A stretch of DNA of 64,000 nucleotides, from the sequence record NC_048170.1. One strand, written 5' to 3'. Position numbers and translations under genes: made by a program. Origin of the DNA: Escherichia phage vB_EcoM_Goslar. Shown one piece after another: positions 2,471 to 57,596 of this stretch (within the stretch, counting starts at the first letter, position 1; each line of letters opens with the position of its first letter). Below the pieces are notes generated by a model, which searched no databases, was not told the origin of the DNA, and worked only from the letters and a program-made list of their open reading frames with translations.

Positions 2471-2887
2471 TTACTTAGCAGCAGGAAATTCCGGCCAATC
2501 GATATTTGGTGCAGCATCGGTATCGACAGCCGACACCGCGTCAACGTAATCCAAAACGGCGTTAAGTCGGGTCGTTTCTTCCGGAGTCAGTTTTCGCCCA
2601 GCCCGTAATTTTAACTGAATAAGATCGATGGAAGCCAGCGAAGAATCAATCAAAGATTGTTTTATCTGTTCTGCCTCGGCGACAAGTTCTTCGTGTTGCC
2701 GCTCGGGTTCCGGAGGCGCGATAAACTCGCCGTTTGAGTATAACCAACCTATTCCAGGTGACACAGCTGCCGTATCGCTAATGCTAACCAGCTGCTGATT
2801 GTCGAATATATCGAGCTCTGCTTCACCATCGTAAACAATCGTGTTTACTACCACTCCATTTTCAATAACAGCGTATAATGTACTCAT
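2471..2887 (-). CDS. tail fiber assembly protein (Tfa-type chaperone)
   Basis: C-terminus ...LNAVLDYVDAVSAVDTDAAPNIDWPEFP resembles the conserved C-terminal motif of lambda Tfa / Mu U-type tail fiber assembly proteins; start chosen at ATG 2887 (MSTLYAVIENG) forming TAATG overlap with fiber stop; ORF track gives 2471..2911. Confidence 0.7.
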   Translation of the reverse strand: MSTLYAVIENGVVVNTIVYDGEAELDIFDNQQLVSISDTAAVSPGIGWLYSNGEFIAPPEPERQHEELVAEAEQIKQSLIDSSLASIDLIQLKLRAGRKLTPEETTRLNAVLDYVDAVSAVDTDAAPNIDWPEFPAAK

Positions 2888-5800
2888 TACATAAACTCCT
2901 CGATGATGCAAATCCCATTAGCACCACGCCCACCAGGCTTAGCGGTTCCTGAGTAAGAGTTATCGTAAGCACCACCACCACCCGAACCAGGCGCGAGGCC
3001 GTTATGGGCGGTGCCAACACCAGCGCGACCGCCACCGCCCCAATATGACGCACCCCCACATCCACCGACGGCAATAGTACCGGCTTGTCCATCGCTACCG
3101 TCTCCGCCCGGAATGCGTATATCCCCGGTAGCAGGTGCGCCCCCATAGCCACCGCCAGTGTTTGTGACAGTTGTTTTTCCTGCGCCTTGCCCGCCGGGAG
3201 CAGTTAGCAGGGATGCAAATTTACTATCCCCACCCCCGTTCCCAGACGTCGCCCCAGAGCCACCGGAACCACCAGAACCAATTATAACAGAATAACTAGC
3301 AGCTGTTACCGTTATAACCGAAATTACTGTTCCGCCAGCTCCTCCCCCAGCACCAAAAAACGTTTCGCTGTTGGAATAAGCCTGACAGCCACCGCCGCCA
3401 CCGCCGCCACCGGTTATTGTTACTCTAATCCGTTTTGTTCCTTGTGTTGGAGTGTACGTCCCTGACGATGTGAAAACACGCATGTTCAGTAAACGTCCGA
3501 CATATCCGCTAGAATCGGCTAAACCAAGATCTTTAGCTGCTAACGTGATATTAGCTGTACCATCGAAAGGTTTACCGTTAATCGTGCGCGCAGTTTGCAA
3601 CTTCGTCGCCGTGGCTGCGTTCCCTGATGTATTCTGGTTCCCCGCGACGTTAACACCTGGTAGATTGATGTTCGCACTACCGTCGAAAGACACCCCACCA
3701 ATGGTGCGGGCTGTTTTCAGTTTTGTCGCCGTGGCGGCATTCCCCGTAGTGTCTTGGTTTCCTGCTGCGTTAACACCCGGCAGACTGATATTTGCCGTAC
3801 CATCGAACGCGACACCGCCAATCGTCCTTGCCGTTTGTAGTTTTGTCGCCGTGGCGGCATTACCGGTTGTGCTTTGGTTACCGGTGGTGTTTACCCCAGG
3901 TAGGCTGATATTTGCTGTTCCGTCAAATGAAACGCCGCCAATCGTCCTTGCCGTTTGCAACTTCGTTGCGGATGCCGCGTTCCCCGTGGTGTTTTGGTTA
4001 CCTGTTGCATTCACACCAGGGATACTATCCTTAGATGTATAGATCTGTGCCCATTCCGACCAATTCGAATCGGCTGCATCCCGACGAGAACGAAGATAGG
4101 CTGGCGCATGCGCCCCCGATGTACCAGACCATCCAATAAGGATCTCACCTTCACCTACTGCGGTTGCGCCTTTAAGATGAATAATATTGCCGTACGCTGT
4201 AGGGTATCCGTTATTGTACGCTTCATACATCTGGATACCCGTATTGCTACCCTGGGTCGCATTAGCTAAAGCGGTGACCCGTCCCTTGGAAGCGAGCACG
4301 TTAATGCTAAAGCTAATATCAGTTGTACCGTCAAAGGCGACCCCATTAATCCTCCGTGCCGTTTGGAGTTTCGTGGCAGTAGCCGCATTACCAGAAGTGC
4401 TCTGGTTACCCGCTTTGTTCACACCCGGTAAATCAATGTTGGCAGTCCCATCAAACGACACACCCCCTATGGTTCTCGCCGTCTGGAGTTTTGTTGCTGA
4501 ACCGGCGTTTCCGGAAGTGCTTTGATTGCCCGCGGCGTTGACACCAGGTAGGTTAATGCTAGCAGAACCATCAAAAGAAACTCCACCGATCGTAATGGTC
4601 GTTTGCAACTTCGTGGCTGTCGCAGCGTTACCCGTCGTATTCTGATTACCAGCTGCATTGACGCCAGGTAATGCGATATCAGTTGTACCGTCAAAAGCGA
4701 CACCACCGATTTTACGGGCGGTCTGTAGCTTGGTTGCGCTTCCTGCGTTTCCGCTGGTGTCTTGGTTTCCTGCAGCGTTAACACCCGGTAGACTGATGCT
4801 GACCGAACCATCGAAACTCACACCACCGATCGTAACAGCGGTTTTCAATTTCGTGGCAGTAGCTGCGTTACCGGTTGTATTTTGATTGCCTGTCGCATTA
4901 ACGCCCGGTAATGCAATATCCGCTGTTCCGTCAAAGGCAACGCCACCGATTCTACGTGCAGTTTGTAGCTTGGTCGCTGTAGCGGCATTACCGCTGGTAT
5001 TTTGCGTGCCTGCTTTATTTACACCGGGAAGATCGATGTTAGCAGAACCGTCGAAGCTAACGCCACCTATCGTTCTTGCCGTAGCAAGTTTAGCTGCTGT
5101 AGCAGCGGCGTTACCGACTTTTAACCATTCGCCCCATGGACCATCCTGGCCGTTCCATGATGCCGTTAAACTACGTACGTAAATATTGCCGGTACGTACA
5201 GTGTAACGTTGTGTTCCACCGAATTGCCCGGTTGGGAGCACTTCAATGTAACCTGCGGCGTTTGCTTCAGGGAAATTGTGGGCGACGTCCGCGTTCGTCG
5301 TTATTGGTTTAGACCAAATACCCACAGATGCTTCGACTGGACCGAAGGTATTCAGATTTGCGTCCGTCGCCATAGCACCATTAAATTTCAGGTACGTCTC
5401 TGGCGATAATCCGATCGTTTTAGCAAACGCAACTTTATCTACGATATCACTACCGTTATTCCCTGCCTGCAATGCTGTCTTAGCTGCCTTTATGGTTTCT
5501 GTCAATCCAAGATACAGTAAGACCGCATCAACGCTTCCTTTGCTTAGCAGATTCAGACCTGTTGACGTTACGTTAGTTAGCCCGATTTGGTTCCGTCCAG
5601 TAAAATAAGGGAGTTTATTCGCATCTGTTGTTAGGTTAGACCACGCGGTCAGCAACGCGTTCAACGGTTGTTTACCCGCCAACGCATTGGTTACTGTCGT
5701 TGCGAAATTAGGATCGTTCCCTAAAGCTTGAGCCAGCTCATTAAGCGTATTTAGCGCTTCTGGAGACGAGTCGATCAGCGATGCGATAGCACGCATCACA

Positions 5801-6861
5801 AATTCCGTGTTGGCAATCTGTCGACTGCTATCGTTCTCTGCAGCCGTAGGCGCTGCCGGGATACCGGTGAACACAGGGCTATTAAGATCTGCCTTGAGAG
5901 CGATGAGACGTTTAAGTGCGTCGACATCGACTTTCAGGTTTTCCCATCCGATGAGAGAACCACCACTGGCGTTATGATAACGGTTGTACCAGAAGTCGCC
6001 GTTAACGCCAAAAAAGAATATACCTTTCTCTTCGTATTGTGGGCCAGAACTATTTCGTGATGTTTCGATATATTTGATTTCAATAAGACCGCTAAACACC
6101 ACTCCTGGGATTATATTGTTGTTTCCAGCTGACTGTGATACCTGGTAAATCCCCGGGGTTGCGGCTTTAACCCATGTTAAGAATTCTGTTACTCCAGCGG
6201 CACCGCTAAAATTCTTAACGTCGGTAAGTATCGCCCCATAACCGAACATACCGGGTAGAGCCACTCGTTCGCTGGTACGGTCACGAATATCTGTCGCAAC
6301 AACGGGCAATTGTTTACGAACAGCATTAACCGCTTTAGGCGTGGCCGATTTTGTCTCGTCGTCGCTATCGGTTTCATTACTTAGAATAGTTAAACCGCGT
6401 GTAGCAGTAGTTGCATCAGGAAGAAATGCGTTATCCAACACCTTAAGCTGTATTGCACTCGTATTACTAACAACGACATGCACCTGACAGTTAAGAACGC
6501 TGGTTGCGCCTTCGGCAGGCGTAGGCTTATATCTTTCTGGCGCACTGCAGACGGCAATCAGAACACCTTGGTCATCATACAGACCGATCTCACGTACCCA
6601 GAACCCACCTTGACCAGCGGGAATAATACCCTCAACGATAATCCTGGTTGTGCTATCACCATCCGCATGGATATTAGAAACTTCCCCACGATAAACTTCG
6701 TGAACAAGCGCTGTTTGGCTGGCGGTCGGGGTTGGGATCGAGCCGTTACCATCACCAACGGCAAAGTGTGTGATTTTTAGTTTCTCACCGTCGGGAAGTA
6801 ACGCAGCGGTGATACGTTCTGCTCCTTTATCGGTAACTACCGTTATATATGCTGTACTCAT
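2887..6861 (-). CDS. tail fiber protein (1324 aa): P2 gpH-like N-terminal domain, about 11 tandem 40-aa fiber repeats, glycine-rich C-terminal region
   Basis: N-terminus MSTAYITVVTDKGAERITAALLPDGEKLKITHFAVGDGNGSIP...GGFWVREIGLYDDQGVLIAV resembles P2 gpH N-terminus; repeats of the form TARTIGGVSFDGSANIDLPGVNxAGNQNTxGNAATATKLQ; C-terminal GGGGGGGG and GxGG runs. Confidence 0.85.
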   Translation of the reverse strand: MSTAYITVVTDKGAERITAALLPDGEKLKITHFAVGDGNGSIPTPTASQTALVHEVYRGEVSNIHADGDSTTRIIVEGIIPAGQGGFWVREIGLYDDQGVLIAVCSAPERYKPTPAEGATSVLNCQVHVVVSNTSAIQLKVLDNAFLPDATTATRGLTILSNETDSDDETKSATPKAVNAVRKQLPVVATDIRDRTSERVALPGMFGYGAILTDVKNFSGAAGVTEFLTWVKAATPGIYQVSQSAGNNNIIPGVVFSGLIEIKYIETSRNSSGPQYEEKGIFFFGVNGDFWYNRYHNASGGSLIGWENLKVDVDALKRLIALKADLNSPVFTGIPAAPTAAENDSSRQIANTEFVMRAIASLIDSSPEALNTLNELAQALGNDPNFATTVTNALAGKQPLNALLTAWSNLTTDANKLPYFTGRNQIGLTNVTSTGLNLLSKGSVDAVLLYLGLTETIKAAKTALQAGNNGSDIVDKVAFAKTIGLSPETYLKFNGAMATDANLNTFGPVEASVGIWSKPITTNADVAHNFPEANAAGYIEVLPTGQFGGTQRYTVRTGNIYVRSLTASWNGQDGPWGEWLKVGNAAATAAKLATARTIGGVSFDGSANIDLPGVNKAGTQNTSGNAATATKLQTARRIGGVAFDGTADIALPGVNATGNQNTTGNAATATKLKTAVTIGGVSFDGSVSISLPGVNAAGNQDTSGNAGSATKLQTARKIGGVAFDGTTDIALPGVNAAGNQNTTGNAATATKLQTTITIGGVSFDGSASINLPGVNAAGNQSTSGNAGSATKLQTARTIGGVSFDGTANIDLPGVNKAGNQSTSGNAATATKLQTARRINGVAFDGTTDISFSINVLASKGRVTALANATQGSNTGIQMYEAYNNGYPTAYGNIIHLKGATAVGEGEILIGWSGTSGAHAPAYLRSRRDAADSNWSEWAQIYTSKDSIPGVNATGNQNTTGNAASATKLQTARTIGGVSFDGTANISLPGVNTTGNQSTTGNAATATKLQTARTIGGVAFDGTANISLPGVNAAGNQDTTGNAATATKLKTARTIGGVSFDGSANINLPGVNVAGNQNTSGNAATATKLQTARTINGKPFDGTANITLAAKDLGLADSSGYVGRLLNMRVFTSSGTYTPTQGTKRIRVTITGGGGGGGGCQAYSNSETFFGAGGGAGGTVISVITVTAASYSVIIGSGGSGGSGATSGNGGGDSKFASLLTAPGGQGAGKTTVTNTGGGYGGAPATGDIRIPGGDGSDGQAGTIAVGGCGGASYWGGGGRAGVGTAHNGLAPGSGGGGAYDNSYSGTAKPGGRGANGICIIEEFM
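3520..4030. repeat. tandem approx 120-nt coding repeats (array 1, about 4 units) inside tail fiber gene
   Basis: Recurring ttgtcgccgtggcggcattccc... units at about 3600, 3720, 3840, 3960. Confidence 0.7.
4290..5110. repeat. tandem approx 120-nt coding repeats (array 2, about 7 units) inside tail fiber gene
   Basis: Recurring units at about 4370, 4490, 4610, 4730, 4850, 4970, 5090; separated from array 1 by a non-repeat insert. Confidence 0.7.
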
Positions 6862-7413: not shown

Positions 7414-7600
7414 TAATCAAATTAAAATGTAAAACGCCTCGAAACCGGAGTGCGATTCGAGGTAAACGTAAACAGTCCAGACGACCGCATAAAATTCCGC
7501 GCATATTGCCCCTCTACCCCGACAAAGCGAGATAGAGGGGAGGATAATACGATTATGCTACTACACTCCAAAGTTCATGGGGCGGTAATCGCCCCATCGG

Positions 7601-14454: not shown

Positions 14455-14493
14455 TTTAACAGCATAAACCCTTCCTGCGTAAGGCAGGAAGGG
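14455..14493 (-). terminator. rho-independent terminator-like hairpin (10-bp stem CCCTTCCTGC, loop gtaag, then UUUAUGCUGUU on minus strand)
   Basis: Inverted repeat at 14469..14493, just downstream of 14508..15005. Confidence 0.55.
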
Positions 14494-14507
14494 CGTACGG
14501 ATTTGTT

Positions 14508-15005
14508 TTACGTGTGTCGTCGTTTACCAAAGAAAATGTGGCTATCTACCACGGTGATATTGGTAGCATGTTTTCTGAAATGTTTAGGGCGAAGATGTTT
14601 CGCGTTAAAGAATACGGCTCCTCGTGTTGGGTCGGCTTTATGGTAAGCCGCAATGTCAGTATAACGTAATGTTGCGACCTCTCGTGCTATTGCTCTTGCT
14701 CGCTCAAAAGCAGCACGATCGCGTATGACAATACGCCTTTGTTTTGTCCAGGGGAATTGACCTCTTTGCAGTACGACGTCTTTGACGTTCGTAGGGAATC
14801 GGTAGTCCATAGATCGATTATGTATTAAAAACGCCACGGAGTATTGCCCTTTTACAGATTCGCCTCTGGCTTCCATATACACAGCACATGCGACGATCTC
14901 TTTCCGGCAATCGATTCTAGGTCCTGCGTTCACTGATGCTTGACTGAACGGTGTAATAAGCAACATAACAAGCCCTAAAATCAACGTGTGTAAAATACCT
15001 TGCAT
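14508..15005 (-). CDS. SleB-like cell wall hydrolase with N-terminal signal peptide (candidate endolysin)
   Basis: Signal-like N-terminus MQGILHTLILGLVMLLITPFSQASV; CAVYMEARGES...AFLIHNR...QRGQFPW matches SleB/CwlJ-type hydrolase motifs as recalled. Confidence 0.6.
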   Translation of the reverse strand: MQGILHTLILGLVMLLITPFSQASVNAGPRIDCRKEIVACAVYMEARGESVKGQYSVAFLIHNRSMDYRFPTNVKDVVLQRGQFPWTKQRRIVIRDRAAFERARAIAREVATLRYTDIAAYHKADPTRGAVFFNAKHLRPKHFRKHATNITVVDSHIFFGKRRHT

Positions 15006-15257
15006 CTTAATAACCTCACGATAAGGTGCTGTCCACTGGCGTCTTGATAACGCATCCCGTCATCGGGTTGTTCTATTCAGCGGGCAGCAGGTTAGCGTCA
15101 GATGTTTGCCCGACATCCACGACAGAAATAAACGGTACTGAAAATACGGTCTCCTCTGGTTTGGCAATAAACATAACGTTGGATAACAGAACCCATTTCC
15201 CGCATCCAACGCGGTAAAGGTGTACATCGTTTGAAGTCATATAGTTTCTCAAAGATG

Positions 15258-15578
15258 TTAACCTCTACCGTCGAGCCATAGGTTGTATTTATCCCGAAGG
15301 TATGGCTCACGATAAATACGTCGATAGACTTGATGCGGTATAAACTTACAATTTACGAGTTCGTCGCTTAATTTATGCCGTCGCTCCATACCGTTGTGAA
15401 TACGACGTATCTCCCGGATATTAAAGGTTGTTTTATTCAAGAGAATAGACATAATGGCGGATCGATGATCCAGATTAAAGATCGCCATCACGCTTCGTAT
15501 CTCGCGTAAAACAACTTCTCTATCGACAAGGATGCGACTGTTGAGCTTAAGATTCTCCGTGATACCCATAACCTTCAT
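15258..15578 (-). CDS. hypothetical protein (start uncertain)
   Basis: ORF track 15258..15662 overlaps upstream gene by 116 nt; internal ATG at 15578 reduces overlap. Confidence 0.3.
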   Translation of the reverse strand: MKVMGITENLKLNSRILVDREVVLREIRSVMAIFNLDHRSAIMSILLNKTTFNIREIRRIHNGMERRHKLSDELVNCKFIPHQVYRRIYREPYLRDKYNLWLDGRG

Positions 15579-15918
15579 CCTCGACACGACGACACATCGG
15601 TAAAAATAAACACCAGCTTGTTGCACTGAGGATCGCCGTTGCGATGATATTTGCGATATCACTCAGTCGAGCATCGACCTGCCACATAACAAGCATAAAA
15701 AGAACGTACGCGAACCCATACACGACAAACCGTTTTATGTTACGTGTCGACCATGTACAAATATACAAAAGGGGAAGCTGCCCTACAACACAAACGATGG
15801 TTCGGATAACGTAATAAACGCGTTCCGTCGATGTTTCAAAATCGATACCCACAGCAAAAATCCCAATCAGTATAAAAGTGATAAAGCAATAGATTTTTGC
15901 GTATTCTTTTAAACTCAT
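15547..15918 (-). CDS. small membrane protein (123 aa, multiple hydrophobic segments); holin candidate
   Basis: Hydrophobic runs FITFILIGIFAVGI and FAYVLFMLVMW; near SleB-like hydrolase. Confidence 0.5.
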   Translation of the reverse strand: MSLKEYAKIYCFITFILIGIFAVGIDFETSTERVYYVIRTIVCVVGQLPLLYICTWSTRNIKRFVVYGFAYVLFMLVMWQVDARLSDIANIIATAILSATSWCLFLPMCRRVEDEGYGYHGES

Positions 15919-15934
15919 AACTTTTCCTGTTCGT

Positions 15935-16168
15935 TTATTTGCGTTTTCCTACATTCCTCAACAAGGAAACGATAACGAATACCGCTATCATCAAAAAGAC
16001 GAACCATAACCCTACGTTAATTCGGGCAGCCGGTTCATCTACCATGAAGAACATCATTCCACAAAACCCAATCGCCATCCATGCTAAGACCATTCCTGTT
16101 AATCCCCGTAGTAGCATATGTCCCATCATGAACTCCTTCTTACTTTTTCTGATAAAGCGACGATTCAA
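15935..16168 (-). CDS. small membrane protein (77 aa, two hydrophobic segments)
   Basis: LTGMVLAWMAIGFCGMMFFMV and LWFVFLMIAVFVIVSLL. Confidence 0.45.
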   Translation of the reverse strand: MNRRFIRKSKKEFMMGHMLLRGLTGMVLAWMAIGFCGMMFFMVDEPAARINVGLWFVFLMIAVFVIVSLLRNVGKRK

Positions 16169-16310
16169 ATTTTAGAAACACCGCTAACGCGAGTGCGATT
16201 AATAACGCACGTACCCACATACCTCCTTGACAACTGTTATACAACATAAAGACCAGAGCGATGCCGCCCATATGCAGGCGGCACTTATCGAACAGTGTTG
16301 GTTTATACAT
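16140..16310 (-). CDS. small membrane protein (56 aa), below ORF-track length cutoff
   Basis: Hand translation from ATG 16310: MYKPTLFDKCRLHMGGIALVFMLYNSCQGGMWVRALLIALALAVFLKFESSLYQKK, stop TAA at 16142..16140. Confidence 0.35.
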   Translation of the reverse strand: MYKPTLFDKCRLHMGGIALVFMLYNSCQGGMWVRALLIALALAVFLKFESSLYQKK

Positions 16311-16530
16311 AAGAGATTAAACGTTGAATGATTTTTACTTTACCTTTACCTGGGCCTTTCTTGCAGCGATTCAACAGACGGATACGGGTTCGAGTTACCA
16401 CGTCGCCATCATAATCAGCCTGGAACTGTGATAAAAAAGCAGGCTGTATCGGATCGACACCAGGATTGCTATAGAAAGGATTGAGACTTAAAAGAGAGTT
16501 AGCTGGAATCATCGTATTGTCCTTACTCAA
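16303..16530 (-). CDS. small basic protein with K-K-G-P-G-K-G-K motif (family member 1)
   Basis: ...RLLNRCKKGPGKGKVKI; motif shared with 34696..34893, 34920..35126, 35116..35262. Confidence 0.45.
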   Translation of the reverse strand: MSKDNTMIPANSLLSLNPFYSNPGVDPIQPAFLSQFQADYDGDVVTRTRIRLLNRCKKGPGKGKVKIIQRLISYV

Positions 16531-16881
16531 TTATTTACCCAGATAGAGGTATTCACCACCCTGAACAACACCGGTTGCCGGATCGACAAGTATACGAACC
16601 CGTGCGTAGGTCTTGAAAGAGGGGTTGAAAACTTCGAAGTCTGCCACTTTCAATTTCACGCTGGGGTTGGTCGGGTTCTTAACTCCAGGGAGTTCTTTCG
16701 GGGTACCGAAATCAACACCGCATTCTTCAAGGTCTGCTGGTGTCATGCTCTCCATGGCCATGTAGATTGCTTTTGCTTTATCGTAAACTTCTGGGCTATC
16801 CAGCAATCCAGCCTGCGCTGAACCGACAACACTACCGAACAGAATAGCAACAGCAACAAACAATTTAGTTAACGTTTTCAT
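16531..16881 (-). CDS. secreted protein (116 aa, signal peptide)
   Basis: MKTLTKLFVAVAILFGSVVGSAQA-GLLD signal-like N-terminus. Confidence 0.55.
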   Translation of the reverse strand: MKTLTKLFVAVAILFGSVVGSAQAGLLDSPEVYDKAKAIYMAMESMTPADLEECGVDFGTPKELPGVKNPTNPSVKLKVADFEVFNPSFKTYARVRILVDPATGVVQGGEYLYLGK

Positions 16882-16917
16882 GATATTTTCCTCGAAAGTA
16901 AAATGTTACAATACCTA

Positions 16918-17340
16918 TTAACGTACGGCCACTACACTGTTAGCGCATGCCTGAATATCATCGGTATTTACGATGATGGTTTCGTTAAACGCACGAATAC
17001 GCGCACGACGTGCTTCTTTAAGGCTGGCGATTGCATTAGCAGCTTGATCTGTATTCGCAAGGCTAATAACCGGGATCAAACGCATGTCAGGACTACAGAT
17101 ATTCAATGCTTGGTATACACGTCCATTGATTCCTACGGTATCAGACATCGGATAGTGCGCACGGCATTGAAATTGACCCATGACAACAAGCGAACGATCG
17201 GAGATACCAATCTGATAACGACCGTCTTCGCTGTAGGCGTAGCAGTTATTCCCACGAGCCATCCAGTTAGCCTGTGCTTGCGTGCTAACAAAAGCCAGGG
17301 TGGTGACGATAGCGAATACGATATTTTTGAACAGTTTCAT
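16918..17340 (-). CDS. secreted protein (signal peptide)
   Basis: Start placed at ATG 17340 (MKLFKNIVFAIVTTLAFVSTQAQA-NW); ORF track gives longer 16918..17409. Confidence 0.55.
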   Translation of the reverse strand: MKLFKNIVFAIVTTLAFVSTQAQANWMARGNNCYAYSEDGRYQIGISDRSLVVMGQFQCRAHYPMSDTVGINGRVYQALNICSPDMRLIPVISLANTDQAANAIASLKEARRARIRAFNETIIVNTDDIQACANSVVAVR

Positions 17341-17398
17341 GATAAAGATCCTTATTGAAATAAAATCGGTATAAAGGCCCCCATTTAGGGGGACCTGA

Positions 17399-17716
17399 TT
17401 AGTTTGCACGTAAGAAATGACCCAGAACCGTTACGATTGGAAACAGCCCCGTAACAGTATTATCACCCGAAAACATCATCATTGTTCCGTTAACGGTGAT
17501 GAAACGGATGTCGGTTGCGGACCCATCGATAGCGACAAAACGCATCGAGTTCGGTGGAAGGTCCTCAACCACTTCCACGAGGTACTCGCGATTATCAAAG
17601 GCTTCTTTAACACGACGCATGAAACGAATCAAGGTTCCTTCCGCGTCAGCTTCCAAATGACCTAAGATATCGCGATTATTACGAATAGCAAATACAGCCA
17701 TTTTAAACATACTCAT
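17399..17716 (-). CDS. hypothetical protein (105 aa)
   Basis: ORF track; preceded by conserved 20-nt motif. Confidence 0.45.
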   Translation of the reverse strand: MSMFKMAVFAIRNNRDILGHLEADAEGTLIRFMRRVKEAFDNREYLVEVVEDLPPNSMRFVAIDGSATDIRFITVNGTMMMFSGDNTVTGLFPIVTVLGHFLRAN

Positions 17717-17782
17717 CTTGACATCCTTTTATATTGGATTGGTTGCTAATAATTCAAGGTGAAGCTGATTACTGCATTGCTT

Positions 17783-17806
17783 CACCTAAGTAATATAGCC
17801 GTGAAA
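17783..17806 (-). promoter_or_regulatory. conserved 20-nt intergenic motif (copy 1), candidate promoter element
   Basis: taagtaatatagccgtgaaa at 17787..17806, identical to 46790..46809; both 45-70 nt upstream of a minus-strand start; minus-strand reading TTTCACGGCTATATTACTTA contains TATATT. Confidence 0.35.
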
Positions 17807-21660: not shown

Positions 21661-21688
21661 CGGCATAAGCCCTCCCATGCCGGGAGGG
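21661..21688 (-). terminator. hairpin CCCTCCC-atgcc-GGGAGGG downstream of 21694..22122
   Basis: Inverted repeat 21670..21688; weak U-tract (CUUAUGCC) on minus strand. Confidence 0.45.
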
Positions 21689-31122: not shown

Positions 31123-31311
31123 CGCAGCATACCCACCATGCCGATTACGGCAAACAGTATACCGACCGCACTATACGCAAGCAGCGCTTTAGCAACCCAA
31201 GATTTTATTTCCGTATACTCTTCATTATTCACCATGTCTCACCTCGTTCGGTTATTGTCTGATCTCATACCTTTACTTAAGCATATCCCCGTCATTAAGA
31301 CGGGGTGTTTA

Positions 31312-34708: not shown

Positions 34709-34893
34709 TACATCGGATTAGGTGCTTTATGGCATTTATAAATACCTACTTTCTTCTGTCTACCTTTACCTGGGCCTCGTTTAACGCGTTTGTTATAAAC
34801 ACGATCCAAATATCGAGTGGCGATAAATCGGGATGAATACACCGGGTCGATATATTCTAGCGTACCTGCTTCTGTCACTTCGAGACATTGCAT
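34696..34893 (-). CDS. small basic protein with K-R-G-P-G-K-G-R motif (family member 2)
   Basis: ...YNKRVKRGPGKGRQKKV. Confidence 0.4.
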   Translation of the reverse strand: MQCLEVTEAGTLEYIDPVYSSRFIATRYLDRVYNKRVKRGPGKGRQKKVGIYKCHKAPNPMYCWR

Positions 34894-35126: not shown

Positions 35127-35262
35127 TTTTACTCCAGGCTGAGAAGATTCTCGGTTTTAGTTCTATCTGTCCACATATCCAGGTGTATCTCCATTTACCT
35201 TTACGAGGACCTTTCTTATTTTTAACACCTATCAGAATACGGTAGGGGTACGACCAAGTCAT
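35116..35262 (-). CDS. small basic protein (48 aa) with K-K-G-P-R-K-G-K motif (family member 4), below ORF-track cutoff
   Basis: Hand translation from ATG 35262: MTWSYPYRILIGVKNKKGPRKGKWRYTWICGQIELKPRIFSAWSKSDD, stop at 35118..35116. Confidence 0.3.
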   Translation of the reverse strand: MTWSYPYRILIGVKNKKGPRKGKWRYTWICGQIELKPRIFSAWSKSDD

Positions 35263-36972: not shown

Positions 36973-37005
36973 AGACGGCATAAAAGCCTCCCATTACGGG
37001 AGGCT
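36973..37005 (-). terminator. rho-independent terminator (8-bp stem AGCCTCCC/GGGAGGCT, loop attac, UUUUAUG on minus strand)
   Basis: Inverted repeat 36985..37005 just downstream of 37018..37566. Confidence 0.6.
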
Positions 37006-37017
37006 CTATTAATCAGC

Positions 37018-37652: not shown

Positions 37653-38186
37653 CTACTTAACGATCACGATGATTTTTCCGCCCGCACCAGCGTAATATGC
37701 CGTTAAATTACCAGTAAACAACTCTTGTAAAAGACGATTTACGTGACTAACAAAGTTAGGATTGTCTGATTTTACAAACTCGATATTGCGCGTTTGTTTT
37801 ATATCACGATCGATTAAGCGTATTTCCAACAACGCACAAATAAGGCGATCGTCAAGTTTACCACTTGCATCCAGCACTTCTCCATACTTCGTAGCACGGA
37901 CGTCTGCATACATACGGTCAACATCATCCTTCCCAAAACCACAGGAATAGGCGTACGTTGCGATGGTATTACCATTGTCCATCACATAAACGTTACCGCC
38001 TGGGTAATCGATGAATCGTTGATCCTTATCACCATGAGCGACGAACTCCAGTGTCGGTCTACCTAGTGAATCGCGATTGAATTCGATTGTGGTCAAACGG
38101 TCAGGCACCACATGCAATGTAAACGGTTTCGCATTGTTACGATCGCTAGTATCGCAGTTAGCCATTACTTTTACAATAACACTCAT
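37653..38186 (-). CDS. hypothetical protein (177 aa), paralog of 37018..37566
   Basis: See paralog. Confidence 0.5.
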   Translation of the reverse strand: MSVIVKVMANCDTSDRNNAKPFTLHVVPDRLTTIEFNRDSLGRPTLEFVAHGDKDQRFIDYPGGNVYVMDNGNTIATYAYSCGFGKDDVDRMYADVRATKYGEVLDASGKLDDRLICALLEIRLIDRDIKQTRNIEFVKSDNPNFVSHVNRLLQELFTGNLTAYYAGAGGKIIVIVK

Positions 38187-38262
38187 GTTTATTCCTTAGT
38201 AGTCCTAGTAGTAGTAGTATTGAGGAATTTCACCTCATTAGATAATCAACTTTGGTAATGTT

Positions 38263-38595
38263 TTACTGAAACAAGACATTAAATTCGACGAGATACCCAT
38301 CGGATCTATCACCACGATATCTGTTGCAGAAAACACCGAATTTCATCAAGAACGCACATAACTCTTCGGCTTTGTATAGCGGAATACGATTTTCGTCGAG
38401 CAGAGGGCACTTATGGCTAACCCGCTCCGACGAATCAACGCAACACAAATAAAGAAGGAACCGAACGATAGCCCGGTTCTTAGTGAAGCTCTCGAATTCA
38501 CCTGCAGTTCTGAACTCATCGAGGAGCTTTGTCGTTTTCTTCAATCGTTCACGATCAAGCATGTTAACCTCAACACGAACATAACCCTCCTCCAA
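38263..38595 (-). CDS. hypothetical protein (110 aa)
   Basis: ORF track. Confidence 0.4.
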   Translation of the reverse strand: MEEGYVRVEVNMLDRERLKKTTKLLDEFRTAGEFESFTKNRAIVRFLLYLCCVDSSERVSHKCPLLDENRIPLYKAEELCAFLMKFGVFCNRYRGDRSDGYLVEFNVLFQ

Positions 38596-38626
38596 CCCGT
38601 AAGGGAAGGAGGAGGTGATTATGCTG

Positions 38627-44961: not shown

Positions 44962-44988
44962 CAGCATAAACCCTCCCCGAAGGGAGGG
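44962..44988 (-). terminator. terminator-like hairpin CCCTCCC-(UUCG loop)-GGGAGGG followed by UUUAUG on minus strand
   Basis: Inverted repeat 44971..44988 immediately downstream of 44999..45556. Confidence 0.55.
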
Positions 44989-44998
44989 CGGTTGGCGA

Positions 44999-45556
44999 TT
45001 ACTCCATCCATACTTCTTCGTCGTAATGATTCTCTATCGCATTACGCCAAAAACGCACGGTGTCCAAACTAATCGGTGCGTAAAAATGTTGGTCAACGCC
45101 AACGTTAAGTCCGTTGGCCTTCGCTAACATACAGCGATGAATATGCCCGAATAGATTAAAGTAACCTGGGTTTCTTTCGCTGGGCTTATGGCATAGCCAG
45201 TAGGATTCGTCATTGCTAATCGGCAACACCAACGGGTGTTCATAAACAGCAGCAAACCCCATACCGAGCAGTTTATCACGCCACGCTTCGAAGCTTAATC
45301 CTGTCGCTTTGTATGCGTCTTCGTCCCAATTCCCCATTACCAATTGAACCTGGATATCAGAACGAATGGCTTCCACGAACTCAAACTTACCCCAATCACC
45401 TAAATGCCATAACACACTGTTCTTTGGAAGCTTGTTGATGGCTTTCAGCATATGCTGGTTCATATCGGCGACGCTTGCGAACGGACGGCGTGAATACGTC
45501 CATGTACGCTCGCTATCAAAATGGGTATCCGACATAAAGAAGATGGGTGGGGTCAT
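44999..45556 (-). CDS. metallophosphoesterase (calcineurin-like phosphatase family)
   Basis: Ordered motifs SDTHF (D-x-H), GDWG, GNWDE, GHIH. Confidence 0.75.
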   Translation of the reverse strand: MTPPIFFMSDTHFDSERTWTYSRRPFASVADMNQHMLKAINKLPKNSVLWHLGDWGKFEFVEAIRSDIQVQLVMGNWDEDAYKATGLSFEAWRDKLLGMGFAAVYEHPLVLPISNDESYWLCHKPSERNPGYFNLFGHIHRCMLAKANGLNVGVDQHFYAPISLDTVRFWRNAIENHYDEEVWME

Positions 45557-46035
45557 TGATCTAATTGCTCCAGAAATGCACGACCCGATTTACTTGCTTT
45601 TAAATGCTGTTCTGCGGAAGTAAGCAGAAGATCGGTTGGCGTGTATGCAGCGCTACCTTTCCACTCTGTTTTCAGTTTACCCTCTTCGATACTGAACTGA
45701 ATCAGTTGTTGGGTGCCGAAGTTAAGCGTGTTCGTCGCAGCGCTAAATACACCACCCATCATGCTGTAACCAAAGACTTTCACGTCTTCCGTGTAGAAGT
45801 CATTGTCGATCAATTTGTTCTGGAGTTCGAGTTGGTCGGACGGCAGCAATCCCCCATCAAAGACGCTTAAAATACCCGCCAGGCGATACATACTCACCTT
45901 TCCTGAAACGCCCACCACGTAATTGCCGTACAGTGTCTCTTCCAGTTTAGCAACAACGGTGCGATCGTCGGAGGTTTTCATCGAAACCTCAATACCATCA
46001 CCAACTTCTGTTAACGTTAAATCAACGATACTCAT
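45553..46035 (-). CDS. hypothetical protein (160 aa)
   Basis: ORF track; 4-nt overlap with phosphoesterase start. Confidence 0.45.
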   Translation of the reverse strand: MSIVDLTLTEVGDGIEVSMKTSDDRTVVAKLEETLYGNYVVGVSGKVSMYRLAGILSVFDGGLLPSDQLELQNKLIDNDFYTEDVKVFGYSMMGGVFSAATNTLNFGTQQLIQFSIEEGKLKTEWKGSAAYTPTDLLLTSAEQHLKASKSGRAFLEQLDQ

Positions 46036-46057
46036 TCATTATTCTCCGCTTTCATGA

Positions 46058-46744
46058 TTAACACATGATTTCACCATGTTTCTTTTCAACATACGTATAA
46101 ACGTCATCCAAATAAGCAATGAGTTTATCACGATCCGCACAGAGCGATTTAATCACCGCAATCTCTTTCATATAAAGCTGCTGACCTAACGCCGGATATG
46201 TAATCCACGCGTAGCCGTCAGGCGCAAATTTAGAAATAAGATAATCAGCGGTTTCCTGTAATGCGAACTCTTTACTCATCTGGCCGTAACGATGTTCGAT
46301 TGCGCGGATACCAAAACGTTCGCTATCGAGACGGCCCATATCTGCCAGACGAAGCACCTGAGAAGCAACCGAACTACGTGGACCAGAGTACGAGGCACGA
46401 TGTTCAGCAATAAGTACGCGTATCTCCTCGATGTCCTCCGGTGTGAAAATATGCTGCTCGTTACGAAGCAGGATAACCGACGCACGAATACCCCCGATAA
46501 GGTGGTGGTATGTTCTGTTTTCGTGGCAAGCGATATCATGCATAAAAGCAGCGGTTAATAGACGACGACGTTCCGTGGGTCTGATGATCCCAACCACATC
46601 AGCAAGTTCATTTGCCAGTTCAACAACAGCAAGCACATGTTCTTCTTGATGTGCAAGATCGTTCTTCCGAATATTTTCAATTACTTCGGTGCGTGTTTCC
46701 GGAGATAAGAAATTTAAACAATCCAACGAATATAAAGATTTCAT
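46058..46744 (-). CDS. HD-domain phosphohydrolase-like protein
   Basis: LAHQEEHVLAVVELANE ... AAFMHDIACHE (H...H...HD pattern). Confidence 0.55.
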   Translation of the reverse strand: MKSLYSLDCLNFLSPETRTEVIENIRKNDLAHQEEHVLAVVELANELADVVGIIRPTERRRLLTAAFMHDIACHENRTYHHLIGGIRASVILLRNEQHIFTPEDIEEIRVLIAEHRASYSGPRSSVASQVLRLADMGRLDSERFGIRAIEHRYGQMSKEFALQETADYLISKFAPDGYAWITYPALGQQLYMKEIAVIKSLCADRDKLIAYLDDVYTYVEKKHGEIMC

Positions 46745-46785
46745 CGCACGTACCTCTTTGAATCTATTAATAAATTTTCTTTACT

Positions 46786-46809
46786 CACGTAAGTAATATA
46801 GCCGTGAAA
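46786..46809 (-). promoter_or_regulatory. conserved 20-nt intergenic motif (copy 2), candidate promoter element
   Basis: taagtaatatagccgtgaaa at 46790..46809, identical to 17787..17806; about 45 nt upstream of start of 46058..46744. Confidence 0.35.
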
Positions 46810-46888
46810 GGATTTGTGTTGGTCCGTCTCGATGCCCATCGTATTTTATGGATTGTCGAATGACGTCATTTTAAGGGACATCCCCGGC

Positions 46889-46923
46889 CTCCTCCCCAGG
46901 AAAGGTGTGGGGAGGAGTTTTTA
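46889..46923 (+). promoter_or_regulatory. terminator-like hairpin plus T5 run on plus strand, upstream of helicase gene (possible attenuator or boundary element)
   Basis: ctcctcccc-aggaaaggtgt-ggggaggag followed by ttttt; lies in divergent intergenic region. Confidence 0.4.
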
Positions 46924-46952
46924 TCATACATTCTATTAAATCGAGCGCGATT

Positions 46953-49034
46953 ATGTTGGATAGAATCAATCGTTTAATGAACCGAATAACGGTTAAAAAT
47001 CAGAGTAACAATAGCGTGCATATCGGGGGTATCGATGCCTGGCGTCTTTCAGATGACATTCAGCGAATATGGGGTACCTCCCGATTTATGAAACATATGT
47101 TTCGTAATTTCTCTTCTAGTGGACTCAGTCTCCACAACTTTTACCTTCTCGATTTCGTTTATATTCTCGAAACGATCGTCGAAGCAAAGAATACCCGCAG
47201 TAATAAACGCATGCTGAAACACCTTATTGAGGTACTGCTGCAGGAAACCTGGTTGCAAAATACCACAATCGAGCAACCTGCAATCCTCGATAAAGCACGC
47301 ATGAACAAAATGCTAACGCTCTCCCTGTTCGATTATCAAGATGAGTTTATCGACATCTATAACCGTAACGTACCTAAATATCGACTGAAAGGATACGTGT
47401 GTGCGATGGGTGCGGGTGCTGGTAAAACAATCACCGCATTGGCTTTAAGCGCCGCAATGAACGTCGACGTATTTGTGGTCTGCTGTCCTAAGAACACCAT
47501 GCGTTCAGCATGGCAATCCGATGTAAACAAAGCCATCGTTGACCTCGCGACAGAAACCGCATTCTGGTCAGATACAATGCCACCATCACAGCTGCAGAAA
47601 AGCGATAAGTATTATTTTCTGCATTACGAGTCGATGGGTTTATTAAACGATGTAATGATCAAGCATAAACGCACCGCGAAGCGCGTGTTGATCGTGGTTG
47701 ATGAAAGCCATAACTTCAACGACAAGAACAGCCAACGTTCCCAACGACTGGTTGATCTCGTACAGACGATGCGTCAGACCATGAATGCGGATGTGCATGT
47801 CTTGTTTATGTCGGGTACGCCCGTTAAACAGATGGGTTCTGAGATGATCCCCTGTTTAGGTTGTATCGATCCGATGTTCCAAGGACAAGTGGTCGATAGC
47901 TTCAAAGCAATTTACGGTTTAACCAGCAGTCGCGCTAACGATATCCTCAGACATCGTCTTGGGTTCATGATGCATGTCGTACCTAAAGAGGCTTACCGTA
48001 AAACCCGTCCGGAAGTTCAGGATGTTTACGTGAAGCTTCCTAATGGTAGCGATTATACCATCTCGAGTATCCGCGACGACATGGCGATATTTGTACGCGA
48101 TCGGGCGAAGTATTACAAGGATAACTGGGGGCATTACAGAAAGATTTTTGATGACGCCTTGGACTACTATCGCAAGACTATTCGTACCGATGGTGAACGT
48201 AAAGAGCTATCTCGATACGAATCGATTGTTGCTCGTTTCCAGAAAGGTTACGACCCCGTCAGAGACAAAGAAGATGCGATGTTCTGCAACGTGTTTGAAA
48301 AACGAGCGATCATGCCGGTTCTTCCTTCTGATTTAAGGGTTGCTTTCAAAGACGCCAAGAGCGTCATCAAGTACGTTGGGTTGAAAATTCAGGGTGAAGC
48401 GTTGGCGCGTGTTCTAGGTGCAGCCCGCATTCGGTGTCATGTCGACATGGTGGAGTACATCGACTTCGAAGGGTACATCAACAACGCTGAAGCCAAGGTG
48501 TTGATCTTCACGTCGTACGTTCAGGTGGTTGAGCGCGTCGACAACATGCTTCGTGATGCGGGTTTCTTACCTGAACCCATTTACGGGAAGACCAACAAAA
48601 ACATCAACCAGATACTTGCTCGTCTACGCGATGATCCTGACAGCGGTCCCGCTATCGCAACATTTGATAGCTTAGCTGAAGGGGTTCCGATGCTGATGTG
48701 TAACGTCGGCCTTTTCCTGAACAATCCATGGCGCTCATCCGATGAAATCCAAGCCATCAGCCGTCTCGACCGTGTCGGGCAAACGCAGCCTGTTCGGATT
48801 TATCGTTTCATGTTGGATACAGGAAGCGAGGGTAACGTTTCTACACGTAGCCACGAAATCATGGAGTTAAGTCGACAGCTTGTTGAAGAAATCACGGGTG
48901 TCAAATATGTAGTGAACAAGCAAGACGATGTTAACTTGCAAGAAACGTTGGCGATGGAAGGATACGATCAATACGTTACCGTAAACACCACGGAATACGA
49001 TATTAAACCGCGACCTGCATTCTTGGAATGGTGA
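46953..49034 (+). CDS. SNF2-like superfamily II helicase/ATPase
   Basis: Walker A GAGAGKT, DESH box IVVDESHNF, SGTP motif, motif VI QAISRLDRVGQTQPVRIYRF; start placed at ATG 46953 (ORF track start 46905 is GTG inside hairpin). Confidence 0.75.
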   Translation: MLDRINRLMNRITVKNQSNNSVHIGGIDAWRLSDDIQRIWGTSRFMKHMFRNFSSSGLSLHNFYLLDFVYILETIVEAKNTRSNKRMLKHLIEVLLQETWLQNTTIEQPAILDKARMNKMLTLSLFDYQDEFIDIYNRNVPKYRLKGYVCAMGAGAGKTITALALSAAMNVDVFVVCCPKNTMRSAWQSDVNKAIVDLATETAFWSDTMPPSQLQKSDKYYFLHYESMGLLNDVMIKHKRTAKRVLIVVDESHNFNDKNSQRSQRLVDLVQTMRQTMNADVHVLFMSGTPVKQMGSEMIPCLGCIDPMFQGQVVDSFKAIYGLTSSRANDILRHRLGFMMHVVPKEAYRKTRPEVQDVYVKLPNGSDYTISSIRDDMAIFVRDRAKYYKDNWGHYRKIFDDALDYYRKTIRTDGERKELSRYESIVARFQKGYDPVRDKEDAMFCNVFEKRAIMPVLPSDLRVAFKDAKSVIKYVGLKIQGEALARVLGAARIRCHVDMVEYIDFEGYINNAEAKVLIFTSYVQVVERVDNMLRDAGFLPEPIYGKTNKNINQILARLRDDPDSGPAIATFDSLAEGVPMLMCNVGLFLNNPWRSSDEIQAISRLDRVGQTQPVRIYRFMLDTGSEGNVSTRSHEIMELSRQLVEEITGVKYVVNKQDDVNLQETLAMEGYDQYVTVNTTEYDIKPRPAFLEW

Positions 49035-50585: not shown

Positions 50586-50606
50586 AAAAAAAAATAGTTA
50601 GCATAT

Positions 50607-50645
50607 CTTCCTCCCTACCCATAACGGGCGGGGAGGAAGGTTTAT
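50607..50645 (+). terminator. terminator between convergent genes (near-perfect 14-bp stem, loop ataac, then GUUUAU)
   Basis: cttcctccctaccc-ataac-gggcggggaggaag then gtttat; follows stop of 49134..50585. Confidence 0.6.
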
Positions 50646-51953: not shown

Positions 51954-53528
51954 TTACAATTCAAAATCTTCATCGATAACACGCTGGGTAAGCACCTTGT
52001 CGCTGAAGAACTCCACCTTGCGCTGATGGTATTTACGGTGCGCTTCGATAGATGTACATACCAGATACCAGAACGTTGGTGTCATTCCTTCGAACTTCCC
52101 TTTCAGCTGACGTAGGCGTCCCAATACCTGAATGTTACCGGTTCGTGACCCCATCGCTAACGTCATGAACGTCATCACCAAGTCAGGGAGGTCGATACCT
52201 GTACCTGCCGATTTCACCGTCGTAACGCTGATATCGTTATCCAACAAGACCATGAAATCTTCTTCAGCAGTATAAGGACCAATCTCTAACTCAGGAATAC
52301 GTTCACTGAGATAATGCGATAACGACTTACACATATCAACGGTTGCACAATACACCAGCATCTTCATGCCTTCCTGATACTGGTTCATGAAACCTTTGAT
52401 GATAACGGTATAGATAAAGTTGAAATAGGCGAGTTTGAGTTGCTTGTTCTTCATGATAGACTGTTCGAATATCGTGTGAGAATAAGAACCCCCAAAGCCT
52501 TTGTATCTGACTTTATCTGTACTGCGTAATCGATACGTTACCGCATTTACCGCAATGTATTTCTTGTATTCGCATTTCGCATAACGTGCTTCTTTCGGAT
52601 ACATCAAATACAACATCCGTTCGATGAACGGATCGTCGGACACTGCCGTTGCTGACAGATAGATGATTTCCGGAATATTCGCGTAACACTTCACTTTGAA
52701 CAAGAAATGCAATGCTTCGTGACATTCATCATGGATTAACAACCCAATGCCTGTTTTCTCCCAGAACTCGACAGGATGGAAAACATAAGGTGCGACACAG
52801 TTGTTCTTTTCATAATCGGTTATGTATCTCTGAAACATGTTCAGCGAGAATAACGCAATTTTGAAATCCAGCTCACCTTGTTCCACCAACGTCTGGAATT
52901 CCAGCATGCTGTAACGAGGAATGTCTGGATGTGGTGGGTCAGATTGAGCTGTGCCACGTATCTCGATAACATCGCCCGGTTCCATACCGAAGAAACTTAG
53001 CAGTGAGCTACGCCAACCAGGCATGTATCTCGGTGACAGGATAATACCCGTCCGTACACCGCGTCGGAAGGTGATCTCCTGCGACATGGCTGTTTTACCA
53101 GACCCCGTGCCTGCGGTGTTTAAGCTCATTCTGAAGGGGGTATCCTTACCCCCGTCCATGTACTCCAACCATTCTTGTTGATCTTCACGCCACGGAAACT
53201 TCCATTTCTTTACGAACTCCACTTCCTTACCTGGCACTGGATCGTGATAAACGATTTCCAACCACTCTTTTCGGATTCCTCGAGAGAAGATAAAATCCAA
53301 AAACGATTTCAACTGTTCGCGGAGTAAGTATACCTCGCTATAATCGCTTCTCGCTGCGGCATACGTGTTTATGGTATCGGTAACCATTCTCCGTGTACGA
53401 GGGTCACGCCGTTTCCTCAGATGCAAACAACGGTCTCGAAGGTAATGGCCGATAAGATGGGCAAATCGAAGTCCGTATCCGCTCAGCCTCATGCCATGCG
53501 AGAAGACGTCGATACGAGCTAACTTCAT
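51954..53528 (-). CDS. superfamily II DExH-box helicase
   Basis: Motif I GTGSGKT, motif II LIHDECHE, motif III LSATAV, motif V AGTGIDLPD, motif VI QVLGRLRQ. Confidence 0.65.
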   Translation of the reverse strand: MKLARIDVFSHGMRLSGYGLRFAHLIGHYLRDRCLHLRKRRDPRTRRMVTDTINTYAAARSDYSEVYLLREQLKSFLDFIFSRGIRKEWLEIVYHDPVPGKEVEFVKKWKFPWREDQQEWLEYMDGGKDTPFRMSLNTAGTGSGKTAMSQEITFRRGVRTGIILSPRYMPGWRSSLLSFFGMEPGDVIEIRGTAQSDPPHPDIPRYSMLEFQTLVEQGELDFKIALFSLNMFQRYITDYEKNNCVAPYVFHPVEFWEKTGIGLLIHDECHEALHFLFKVKCYANIPEIIYLSATAVSDDPFIERMLYLMYPKEARYAKCEYKKYIAVNAVTYRLRSTDKVRYKGFGGSYSHTIFEQSIMKNKQLKLAYFNFIYTVIIKGFMNQYQEGMKMLVYCATVDMCKSLSHYLSERIPELEIGPYTAEEDFMVLLDNDISVTTVKSAGTGIDLPDLVMTFMTLAMGSRTGNIQVLGRLRQLKGKFEGMTPTFWYLVCTSIEAHRKYHQRKVEFFSDKVLTQRVIDEDFEL

Positions 53529-55531: not shown

Positions 55532-55676
55532 TATTGCTTTCCGATTTAAATGGTTTTATCATACGGTTTACCAAATCCGTTGGACTTTACTATCGTTGTG
55601 ATAGCATTGGGAATCCCTTCCCTTAGGTTATGTAGGTGTTAATATATCTCCACTGCTGACCTTTATGTCGGCAGCA

Positions 55677-56162
55677 TTATCCAGCTTTCTGTTGTAAAGC
55701 GTATGGATCCATAGCGTCTGACATATCCGCAAAAACGGTGAGAATAAACCCCTTTATCTGTCTCACCTCGGTTACACGAAGCCCTTTATCATTGCGATAT
55801 ACGTTTTCTTCACCGACTAACTTTGGTCGAATAACATAAACTCCATCAACAAGCGGGAATGTCGGATACGGATAAATACCAATACGAATGATGTTTGGGC
55901 GATCGCCTAGAAGGTCACGTCCAAACTTATCGACTCGACCATAAATCGCCCCATCCGCACCTTCCACCTCAATGAGATCGTTTCGAATATCCTGAAATAG
56001 CTGCTCTAACGTGTCGGCGGGATACGCATATGCGACGCCTAACGCTGGATCCTCAATGGTTTTGACACTGAATCCGTTAAGCCAAACAATCCGTTCATCC
56101 GCCCATGTTTCTTCATATACCGTTAATCCATCGCCGTATATGTTGGCGTGTGCTATCTCCAT
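55677..56162 (-). CDS. hypothetical protein (161 aa)
   Basis: ORF track. Confidence 0.45.
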   Translation of the reverse strand: MEIAHANIYGDGLTVYEETWADERIVWLNGFSVKTIEDPALGVAYAYPADTLEQLFQDIRNDLIEVEGADGAIYGRVDKFGRDLLGDRPNIIRIGIYPYPTFPLVDGVYVIRPKLVGEENVYRNDKGLRVTEVRQIKGFILTVFADMSDAMDPYALQQKAG

Positions 56163-56276
56163 AATCTCATTTCCTCTTATACGTTAGGATAGATGACATG
56201 TTTGATATACGTTGCCTTTGCATATATTGCTTTATTTCCGTCAGAAATAACGGAAAATAAAAACAACGACATAGTT

Positions 56277-56306
56277 CCCTCCCACCTCCACATGGGAGAG
56301 GGAGGG
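56277..56306 (-). terminator. hairpin CCCTCCC-acctccacatgggaga-GGGAGGG, U-rich 3' flank on minus strand
   Basis: Inverted repeat; loop shares cacatggg with hairpin at 57135..57163. Confidence 0.45.
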
Positions 56307-56319
56307 CTATTCGTGTTTA

Positions 56320-56682: not shown

Positions 56683-56704
56683 TATGTTTTTCCTCAGGTG
56701 AATG

Positions 56705-57055: not shown

Positions 57056-57134
57056 ACCAGGGATCCTCTTTTAAGTGTTCACATTCTAGTGTTAAGCAGT
57101 TAAAATAAACCGTCCCTTTAATCAGCATAAACAT

Positions 57135-57163: not shown

Positions 57164-57174
57164 CGTAATATGCA

Positions 57175-57585: not shown

Positions 57586-57596
57586 CGTATACCTCG

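Follow-up and report, generated by a model that had tools for sequence, protein, structure and literature searches.

A twice-repeated intergenic 20-mer as the probable core of phiKZ-like early promoters in an uncultured lineage of jumbo phages

A 64,000-nt stretch of phage DNA (the window) contains the 20-mer TAAGTAATATAGCCGTGAAA in two exact copies, at 17787–17806 and 46790–46809, both on the plus strand, and the question is what kind of element is repeated there. The initial annotation had noted the two copies, in the same orientation and 45–70 nt upstream of minus-strand genes, and a search of the window bore this out: the site 1 copy lies 70 nt upstream of the ATG at 17716 of one minus-strand ORF, and the site 2 copy 45 nt upstream of the ATG at 46744 of another. 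The gaps that hold the copies are intergenic and measure 108 nt (site 1) and 160–216 nt (site 2). The repeat could be extended by 5 nt to 25 nt with 24/25 identity (17782–17806 versus 46785–46809), beyond which the likeness ends abruptly in unrelated sequence. Read on the minus strand, the motif is TTTCACGGCTATATTACTTA[G/C]GTGA. The two copies, with the reading that we propose for them, are:

17782–17806, minus strand: putative early-promoter core, site 1, TTTCACGGCTATATTACTTAGGTGA, in register with the phiKZ, AR9, 201phi2-1, OBP and N1M2 consensus sequences
46785–46809, minus strand: putative early-promoter core, site 2, TTTCACGGCTATATTACTTACGTGA

No third copy of the 20-mer was found in the 64-kb window, even with up to three mismatches, and 100 dinucleotide-preserving shuffles gave no chance matches. 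Both copies contain the inner element TATATTAC, which is otherwise absent from the window, and mismatch pattern searches there for degenerate copies gave no excess. A 32-nt weight matrix was built from 15 instances, with both window sites among the training set, and scored the two sites at 45.9 and 38.5. A further degenerate copy was rejected, since the next match scored 10.7, inside the range of the shuffles (up to 15.1). Three weak motif-like sequences, none of them above the shuffle range, occur on the minus strand at 37685–37708, 38248–38271 and 55617–55648. Of these three, ATTTAACGGCATATTACGCTGGTG is a one-base-deletion variant that falls within an ORF, at its 3′ end, TTTCAGTAAAACATTACCAAAGTT spans the end of the ORF at 38263–38595 and the gap upstream of that at 37653–38186, and GATATATTAACACCTACATAACCTAAGGGAAG lies between genes, ahead of the gp74-like RNA polymerase (RNAP) gene.

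Nearly all genes in the window are on the minus strand. Profile searches identified tail-fibre and tail proteins, an NAD-dependent ligase, a thymidylate synthase, an exonuclease and helicases; searches for known RNA families and tRNAs found none. Split RNAP β/β′ genes were located at 53525–55531 and 57597–59930. Both proteins match about 306–309 jumbo-phage records, and among the matches listed the identity is about 34% or less. The surrounding block is collinear with phiKZ gp68, gp69, gp70, gp71/73, gp74 and gp75, and includes the homologues of gp68, gp71/73 and gp74, in phiKZ order, of a split multisubunit non-virion RNAP (nvRNAP):

51954–64000, minus strand: block syntenic with phiKZ gp68–gp75 (nvRNAP), with gp68-like, gp71/73-like (57597–59930), gp74-like (53525–55531) and gp75-like helicase genes

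No gene for a virion RNAP (vRNAP) was found in the 64-kb window. Megablast against phage records returned no near-identical phage and none that was alike at the DNA level. Relatives were instead found through the motif, as IMG/VR contigs of 183 and 238 kb and as metagenome contigs, four of 238–249 kb and one of 209 kb. Two same-lineage IMG/VR relatives (L008 and L011) encode a homologue of phiKZ gp80, the C-terminal part of the vRNAP β′ subunit (E 3e-45), and relatives that are 84–98% identical also encode homologues of gp55 (nvRNAP) and of gp54 (chimallin, the nuclear-shell protein). Because of the gp68–gp75 block and the gp80, gp55 and gp54 homologues of the relatives, we class the phage as a new and distant phiKZ-like, nucleus-forming jumbo phage, a kind that transcribes its genome with two phage-encoded multisubunit RNAPs.

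Phages of this kind have a known class of early promoter, which in phiKZ-like members can be written as TTT.A-N4-TATATTAC-N5-T-G(+1), and the window motif is in register with this formula base for base. In the first 50 kb of phiKZ, we read TTTAAnnnnTATATTAC-N5-T-G upstream of gp5, gp6, gp10.1, gp31, gp36, gp41.3 and gp54, and this sequence aligns base for base with the TTTCACGGCTATATTAC-TTAGG-T-G of the window. Both window copies carry an A/T-rich, extended −10-like element of the form TATATTA[C/T], namely TATATTAC, which is identical to that of phiKZ. Four nucleotides upstream of it is a T-rich element, TTTCA, at the same spacing as TTTAA in phiKZ and TTTCA/TTTYA in N1M2 and OBP, and a T-G follows six to seven bases downstream, as it does in phiKZ. 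The G 6 nt downstream of the element is a sequence feature of both copies and of all copies in the lineage. The core at site 1 is thereby made up of a −20-type TTTCA, an extended −10-type CTATATTAC and a T-G at the predicted start. Placement agrees as well: the copies are intergenic and co-oriented, lie tens of nucleotides before the first gene of a cluster and are present in several near-identical copies per genome. The phiKZ promoters are likewise intergenic, with 5′ UTRs of tens of nucleotides and a copy before the chimallin gene.

Early promoters predicted for other members of the group (PMC7058600) include TTTCARRYAKATATTATYWAAGTGWA in N1M2 (in its fuller form TBYAWWWWWTTTCARRYAKATATTATYWAAGTGWA), ...TTTYARRYAKATATTATYWWADTG in OBP, ...TTTRARR_BTATATTACDWHDGTG in 201phi2-1 and WTTTYAAACCTACATTATY in EL; the element listed there for phiKZ is TATATTAC. 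Experimental maps of such promoters exist for phiKZ, AR9, phiR1-37 and 201phi2-1. In phiKZ, 32 early promoters were obtained by differential RNA-seq (dRNA-seq), that of gp54 among them; they combine an extended −10 element with a T-rich one that lies upstream of −19 (PMC8244752). Mapping by RNA-seq, dRNA-seq and primer extension has put their number at 28–32, and they depend on the vRNAP. The 201phi2-1 promoters were confirmed by ONT-cappable-seq (PMC11512511). In AR9, the early promoter is AAATATATATTAT-(6N)-G+1, and the 6-nt start rule is common to phiKZ and phiR1-37; early transcription in AR9 survives chloramphenicol and was therefore assigned to the injected vRNAP (PMC5312081). According to a review, bioinformatic motifs of this kind have been borne out as early promoters in all phages of the group that were profiled (PMC7598289).

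The closest published consensus is that of N1M2, TTTCARRYAKATATTATYWAAGTGWA. With OBP, N1M2 and 201phi2-1 the motif shares TTTCA-N5-ATATTA[C/T]-N4-GTG(A), at equal length and in the same register, but positions 6–10 are CGGCT here versus RRYAK there, and the last position of ATATTAY is T in N1M2 and OBP, whereas it is C here as in phiKZ and 201phi2-1. Compared to phiKZ, the segment between the elements is rich in G+C (CGGC) instead of A-rich, and the A/T-rich −30 region upstream is not conserved in the present lineage. The −20 to −15 segment (CACGGC) is indeed richer in G+C than in the published consensus sequences, which counts against an early promoter. With only two copies in the window and about 5–7 per 240-kb genome, the motif is also far less frequent than in phiKZ (32) or AR9 (41), which likewise speaks against this class, though the number is near the 6–8 of 201phi2-1. 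The AR9 (PBS1-like) promoter has the ATATTA[T/C] core in common with the motif, as well as a G start at a spacing of 6 nt and a high sensitivity to deviations; it differs in being longer, purely A/T and without TTTCA, and in belonging to a phage with uracil-containing DNA and a Gram-positive host. Like the promoters of N4 vRNAP and of T7-type polymerases, the motif is long, nearly invariant, phage-specific and associated with a phage-encoded polymerase (carried in the virion in N4). However, N4 uses DNA hairpin promoters and a giant single-subunit vRNAP, and the T7 enzyme is also single-subunit, whereas the polymerases here are split β/β′ multisubunit enzymes and the conserved motif includes no hairpin; no inverted repeat common to the copies, as in an N4-type recognition hairpin, was found within it.

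The initial annotation had named an absence of further copies upstream of genes as part of what would refute it; such copies were found in the relatives. Each genome has 4–6 strict copies, before unrelated genes and always co-oriented with the gene downstream, in support of a promoter for a phage polymerase, one of the readings that the annotation had offered. One variant per genome, TTTCAGGGTTATATTACCTAGGTGA, precedes the chimallin homologue by about 65 nt, a pairing also seen at phiKZ gp54. The strict pattern TTTCAC-N4-ATATTAC-N4-GTG occurs at 24 IMG/VR loci, mostly on contigs of 214–302 kb, which are intergenic with a co-oriented ORF beginning 24–135 nt downstream. All intergenic copies examined were co-oriented with a downstream gene within this range. 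Five matches inside long ORFs (>100 codons) on contigs of 23–48 kb look like chance matches. When 50,697 phage records were searched with a 35-nt query that included the motif, most of what came back was from jumbo phages that encode RNAPs (the SPN3US group, Aeromonas LAh10/D3/D6/D9, Erwinia pEa_SNUABM_37/48, EL and Vibrio phiKT1028). Among the matches listed, nearly all fell in unannotated DNA, and the four that were inspected were all intergenic, 34–96 nt upstream of a co-oriented gene. No bacterial genomes with the motif were found, and single-protein searches for diverged orthologous loci returned the close relative only. In the relatives, the chimallin and gp55 homologues precede the gp68–gp75 block, another early promoter is predicted about 6 kb beyond the end of the window (L034), and the vRNAP gp80 homologue adjoins yet another copy; the loci concerned include L021 1029–4266 and L008 1248–2504.

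Orthologous loci show how far the constrained sequence extends. At site 2, nine orthologues down to 84% overall identity share AAATCC-TTTCACGGCTATATTACTTA[C/A]GTGAGTAAA, invariant except for the bracketed position 21, between flanks that vary over about 20 nt upstream and from +10 to +13. At site 1, seven orthologues share TAATTTTCACGGCTATATTAC[T/C]TAGGTGAAGC, again invariant except for the bracketed position 18, while the −30 region varies. The promoter is thus an island of conservation between variable flanks at both sites.

We conclude that each copy of the 20-mer very probably forms the core of an early promoter in a new phiKZ-like, nucleus-forming jumbo phage, and that it would most likely be read by the vRNAP. 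Direct observation at the two sites and in the relatives gives the sequence itself, the way it lines up with known early promoters, how it recurs, its orientation and conservation, and the type of phage. Where transcription would start, that it would be early and which polymerase would carry it out, we infer from the better-studied relatives. By analogy with these, the polymerase in question is most likely the multisubunit RNAP packaged in the virion, and not the nvRNAP encoded in the window. The starts listed here are predicted because in AR9, phiKZ and phiR1-37 a G lies 6 nt past the consensus; the units that they would serve are given after them:

17783, minus strand: predicted transcription start, site 1, the G 6 nt after TATATTAC, by the "consensus-(6N)-G+1" rule and the phiKZ alignment
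46786, minus strand: predicted transcription start, site 2, a G, by the same rule and alignment
14494–17716, minus strand: transcription unit 1 (predicted extent), running to the GC-rich hairpin+TATG at 14463–14493
44990–46744, minus strand: transcription unit 2 (predicted extent), running to the hairpin+TATG at 44965–44989

In such a scheme, TTTCA would serve as the −20 element (approximately) and CTATATTAC as the extended −10-like element on the minus strand, and transcription would begin at the G six bases beyond it, at 17783 and 46786. This would leave 5′ UTRs of 67 nt (17783–17717) at site 1 and 42 nt (46786–46745) at site 2. A multisubunit RNAP that is carried in the virion and enters the cell together with the DNA would recognize the motif and could work without host RNAP and without new protein synthesis, transcribing two leftward units, one for small proteins and the other for an HD-domain protein, a third protein and a metallophosphoesterase. 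Unit 1 starts with a 105-aa ORF (17399–17716), continues with small ORFs and ends with a cell-wall hydrolase (14508–15005); family searches with its ORFs gave no matches except Hydrolase_2/endolysin-like. A hydrolase would be atypical as an early gene, which counts against an early promoter at site 1. Unit 2 comprises the HD-domain protein (46058–46744), a 160-aa ORF (45553–46035) and the metallophosphoesterase (44999–45556).

We considered the possibility that the motif is a promoter for the nvRNAP (a middle class), or for both phage polymerases, instead of for the vRNAP. The nvRNAP genes are in the window, and the HD phosphohydrolase and metallophosphoesterase at site 2 head a long cluster for nucleotide metabolism and replication, with exonuclease, thymidylate synthase and ligase, which could be middle genes. 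However, known nvRNAP promoters look different (TATG in late phiKZ promoters, TACT centered at −22 in middle ones and AACA-N6-TA/G in late AR9 promoters), the motif fits the early class position for position, and a separate class of hairpin+TATG elements exists in the window; we regard an nvRNAP promoter as improbable. An operator for an HTH-type phage regulator, in place of a promoter or superimposed on it, is suggested by the TTTCAC...GTGAAA arms, which form an imperfect dimer palindrome with the inverted repeat TCAC-N16-GTGA in both copies, and by the identity at site 1, which reaches past a classical −10 region. Yet the invariant center, CTATATTAC, lacks symmetry, related phages show no palindrome in the outer arms (TTTCARR...GTGWA in N1M2, TTTAAA...TTG in phiKZ), and the orientation is fixed in all intergenic copies examined, although a symmetric operator would need none. 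We therefore consider an operator very improbable, and the HTH-protein site offered as an option in the initial annotation found no specific support, given an asymmetric core with a strict dependence on orientation.

A host σ70 promoter with TATATT as its −10 hexamer would be highly unlikely, even though TTAATA-16-TATATT at site 1 scores 9/12. That match is no better than in shuffles (3 found versus 2.3 expected), site 2 has no match, and TTGACA/TATAAT hexamers 16–18 nt apart in both copies were not found. Furthermore, TTAATA varies among the orthologues while TTTCAC, ACTTA and GTGA, which fall outside the hexamers, are invariant, and phages of the phiKZ type transcribe without the host RNAP (PMC10914365; PMC7598289). 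We give almost no credence to an origin without a regulatory role, whether as a coincidental repeat, a duplication remnant or a piece of a mobile element. Such an origin might be suspected from the presence of only two copies in the window, but it is opposed by the expectation of zero matches, by the unrelated flanks, by the conserved island amid diverging flanks and by the occurrence of the element, in register, in phages that share only about 30% identity in their RNAP subunits. An early promoter read by the vRNAP thus remains our preferred reading.

The hairpin+TATG elements, at which both predicted units end, consist of a GC-rich hairpin, in many cases CCCTCCC...GGGAGGG and with at least 8 bp in the stem, and (T)TTATGC a few bases on. 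A hairpin search found 15 in the window versus 3.0 in shuffles; they are mostly intergenic, and 11 are on the coding strand:

1878–1914, 7502–7540, 14463–14493, 21664–21688, 31282–31305 and 36979–37007, minus strand: hairpin+TATG elements
38580–38615, 44965–44989, 50602–50636, 56270–56306 and 57126–57161, minus strand: hairpin+TATG elements

From their sequence, they look like phiKZ-style units of a terminator and a late promoter (TATG), and this agreement with phiKZ in a second class of signal also speaks for the early-promoter reading. In phiKZ, sequences such as GAGGCTTTATGCTG precede early promoters, and the hairpin+TATG class of the window resembles this arrangement.

The type of element is already known, and no new mechanism is involved; what is new is the lineage, which consists of previously undescribed nucleus-forming jumbo phages. 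The result is a first regulatory map for this uncultured lineage, in which the RNAP subunits share only about 30% identity with those of known phages. It comprises two predicted early starts in the window, about six early promoter contexts per genome, that of the nuclear-shell gene included, and late elements of the phiKZ-style hairpin+TATG form. The grammar of the early promoter, TTT.A-N4-TATATTAC-N6-G, holds even in phages between whose polymerases the likeness is now barely detectable. This should be of use in annotating metagenomic jumbo phages and in defining what the vRNAP recognizes.

At site 1, the predicted start is spanned by an inverted repeat:

17758–17786, minus strand: inverted repeat GGTGAAGC-N13-GCTTCACC, spanning the predicted start of site 1

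Its arms are invariant among seven orthologues, in which 5 of the 13 loop positions vary and no compensatory change was found. A compensatory change in L011 relative to site 1 was withdrawn, as the genes that follow the two promoters are not orthologues. In other promoters of the phiKZ-like early type, hairpins are common close to the start, but inconsistent. A preliminary folding counted from position 14 had given a mean z of −1.8. When +1 to +45 was folded for 23 promoters, the mean z was −0.87 (p about 0.02–0.05), the positions were inconsistent and there were none in phiKZ. A 5′-terminal RNA hairpin was consequently rejected as a general rule, and is kept solely as a peculiarity of site 1.

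The divergent intergenic region at site 2 (46745–46960) is identical to that of a 93.6%-identical IMG/VR relative, whereas the adjacent coding DNA differs at 4–10 positions per 100 nt. Directly upstream of the site 2 promoter is a block of about 95 nt (46836–46930) that is invariant in nine genomes down to 84% overall identity. On the plus strand, it consists of TATTTTATG (with TATG at 46847–46850), 73 nt, a 10-bp hairpin and T5, and the ATG of a helicase gene (at about 46955) follows 30 nt on. In the hairpin, 46889–46898 pairs with 46908–46917, with one compensatory change from A-T to G-C (in L044). The block matched no Rfam family and no known phage. Its layout makes it a candidate small RNA, or else a leader attenuator; premature termination in 201phi2-1 reportedly yields small RNAs derived from 5′ UTRs. 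Within the block, AATGACGTCATT is a 12-nt perfect palindrome (46859–46870) that occurs once in the window and recurs in relatives in the 5′ UTR following the chimallin early promoter (L021 at about 985–998; L036). It could be a regulator site common to both loci. The idea that the candidate small RNA pairs with the 5′ UTR of chimallin found no support, since the duplex energy equaled the mean of shuffled sequences. Site 2 might be a compact hub, in which a conserved small RNA, or a leader attenuator together with a shared regulator site, would couple early and late divergent transcription and possibly the nuclear-shell gene; the TATG of the block would then be a late-type start, the 73 nt an RNA and the hairpin its terminator. 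We consider this a speculative and rather unlikely arrangement.

Two other repeats were observed in the window. A 120-nt periodic repeat (3473–5140, minus strand) with 8–11 diverged copies of 62–85% identity lies in the tail-fibre gene (2887–6861, 1324 aa), where it corresponds to protein repeats of 40 residues. A 24-nt family, TTTACCTTTACCTGGGCCTTTCTT, occurs at 16339–16362, 34759–34782, 35194–35217 and 63236–63259 with 75–100% identity; its minus-strand reading, if in frame, would give a peptide rich in Lys and Gly (..KGPGKGK..).
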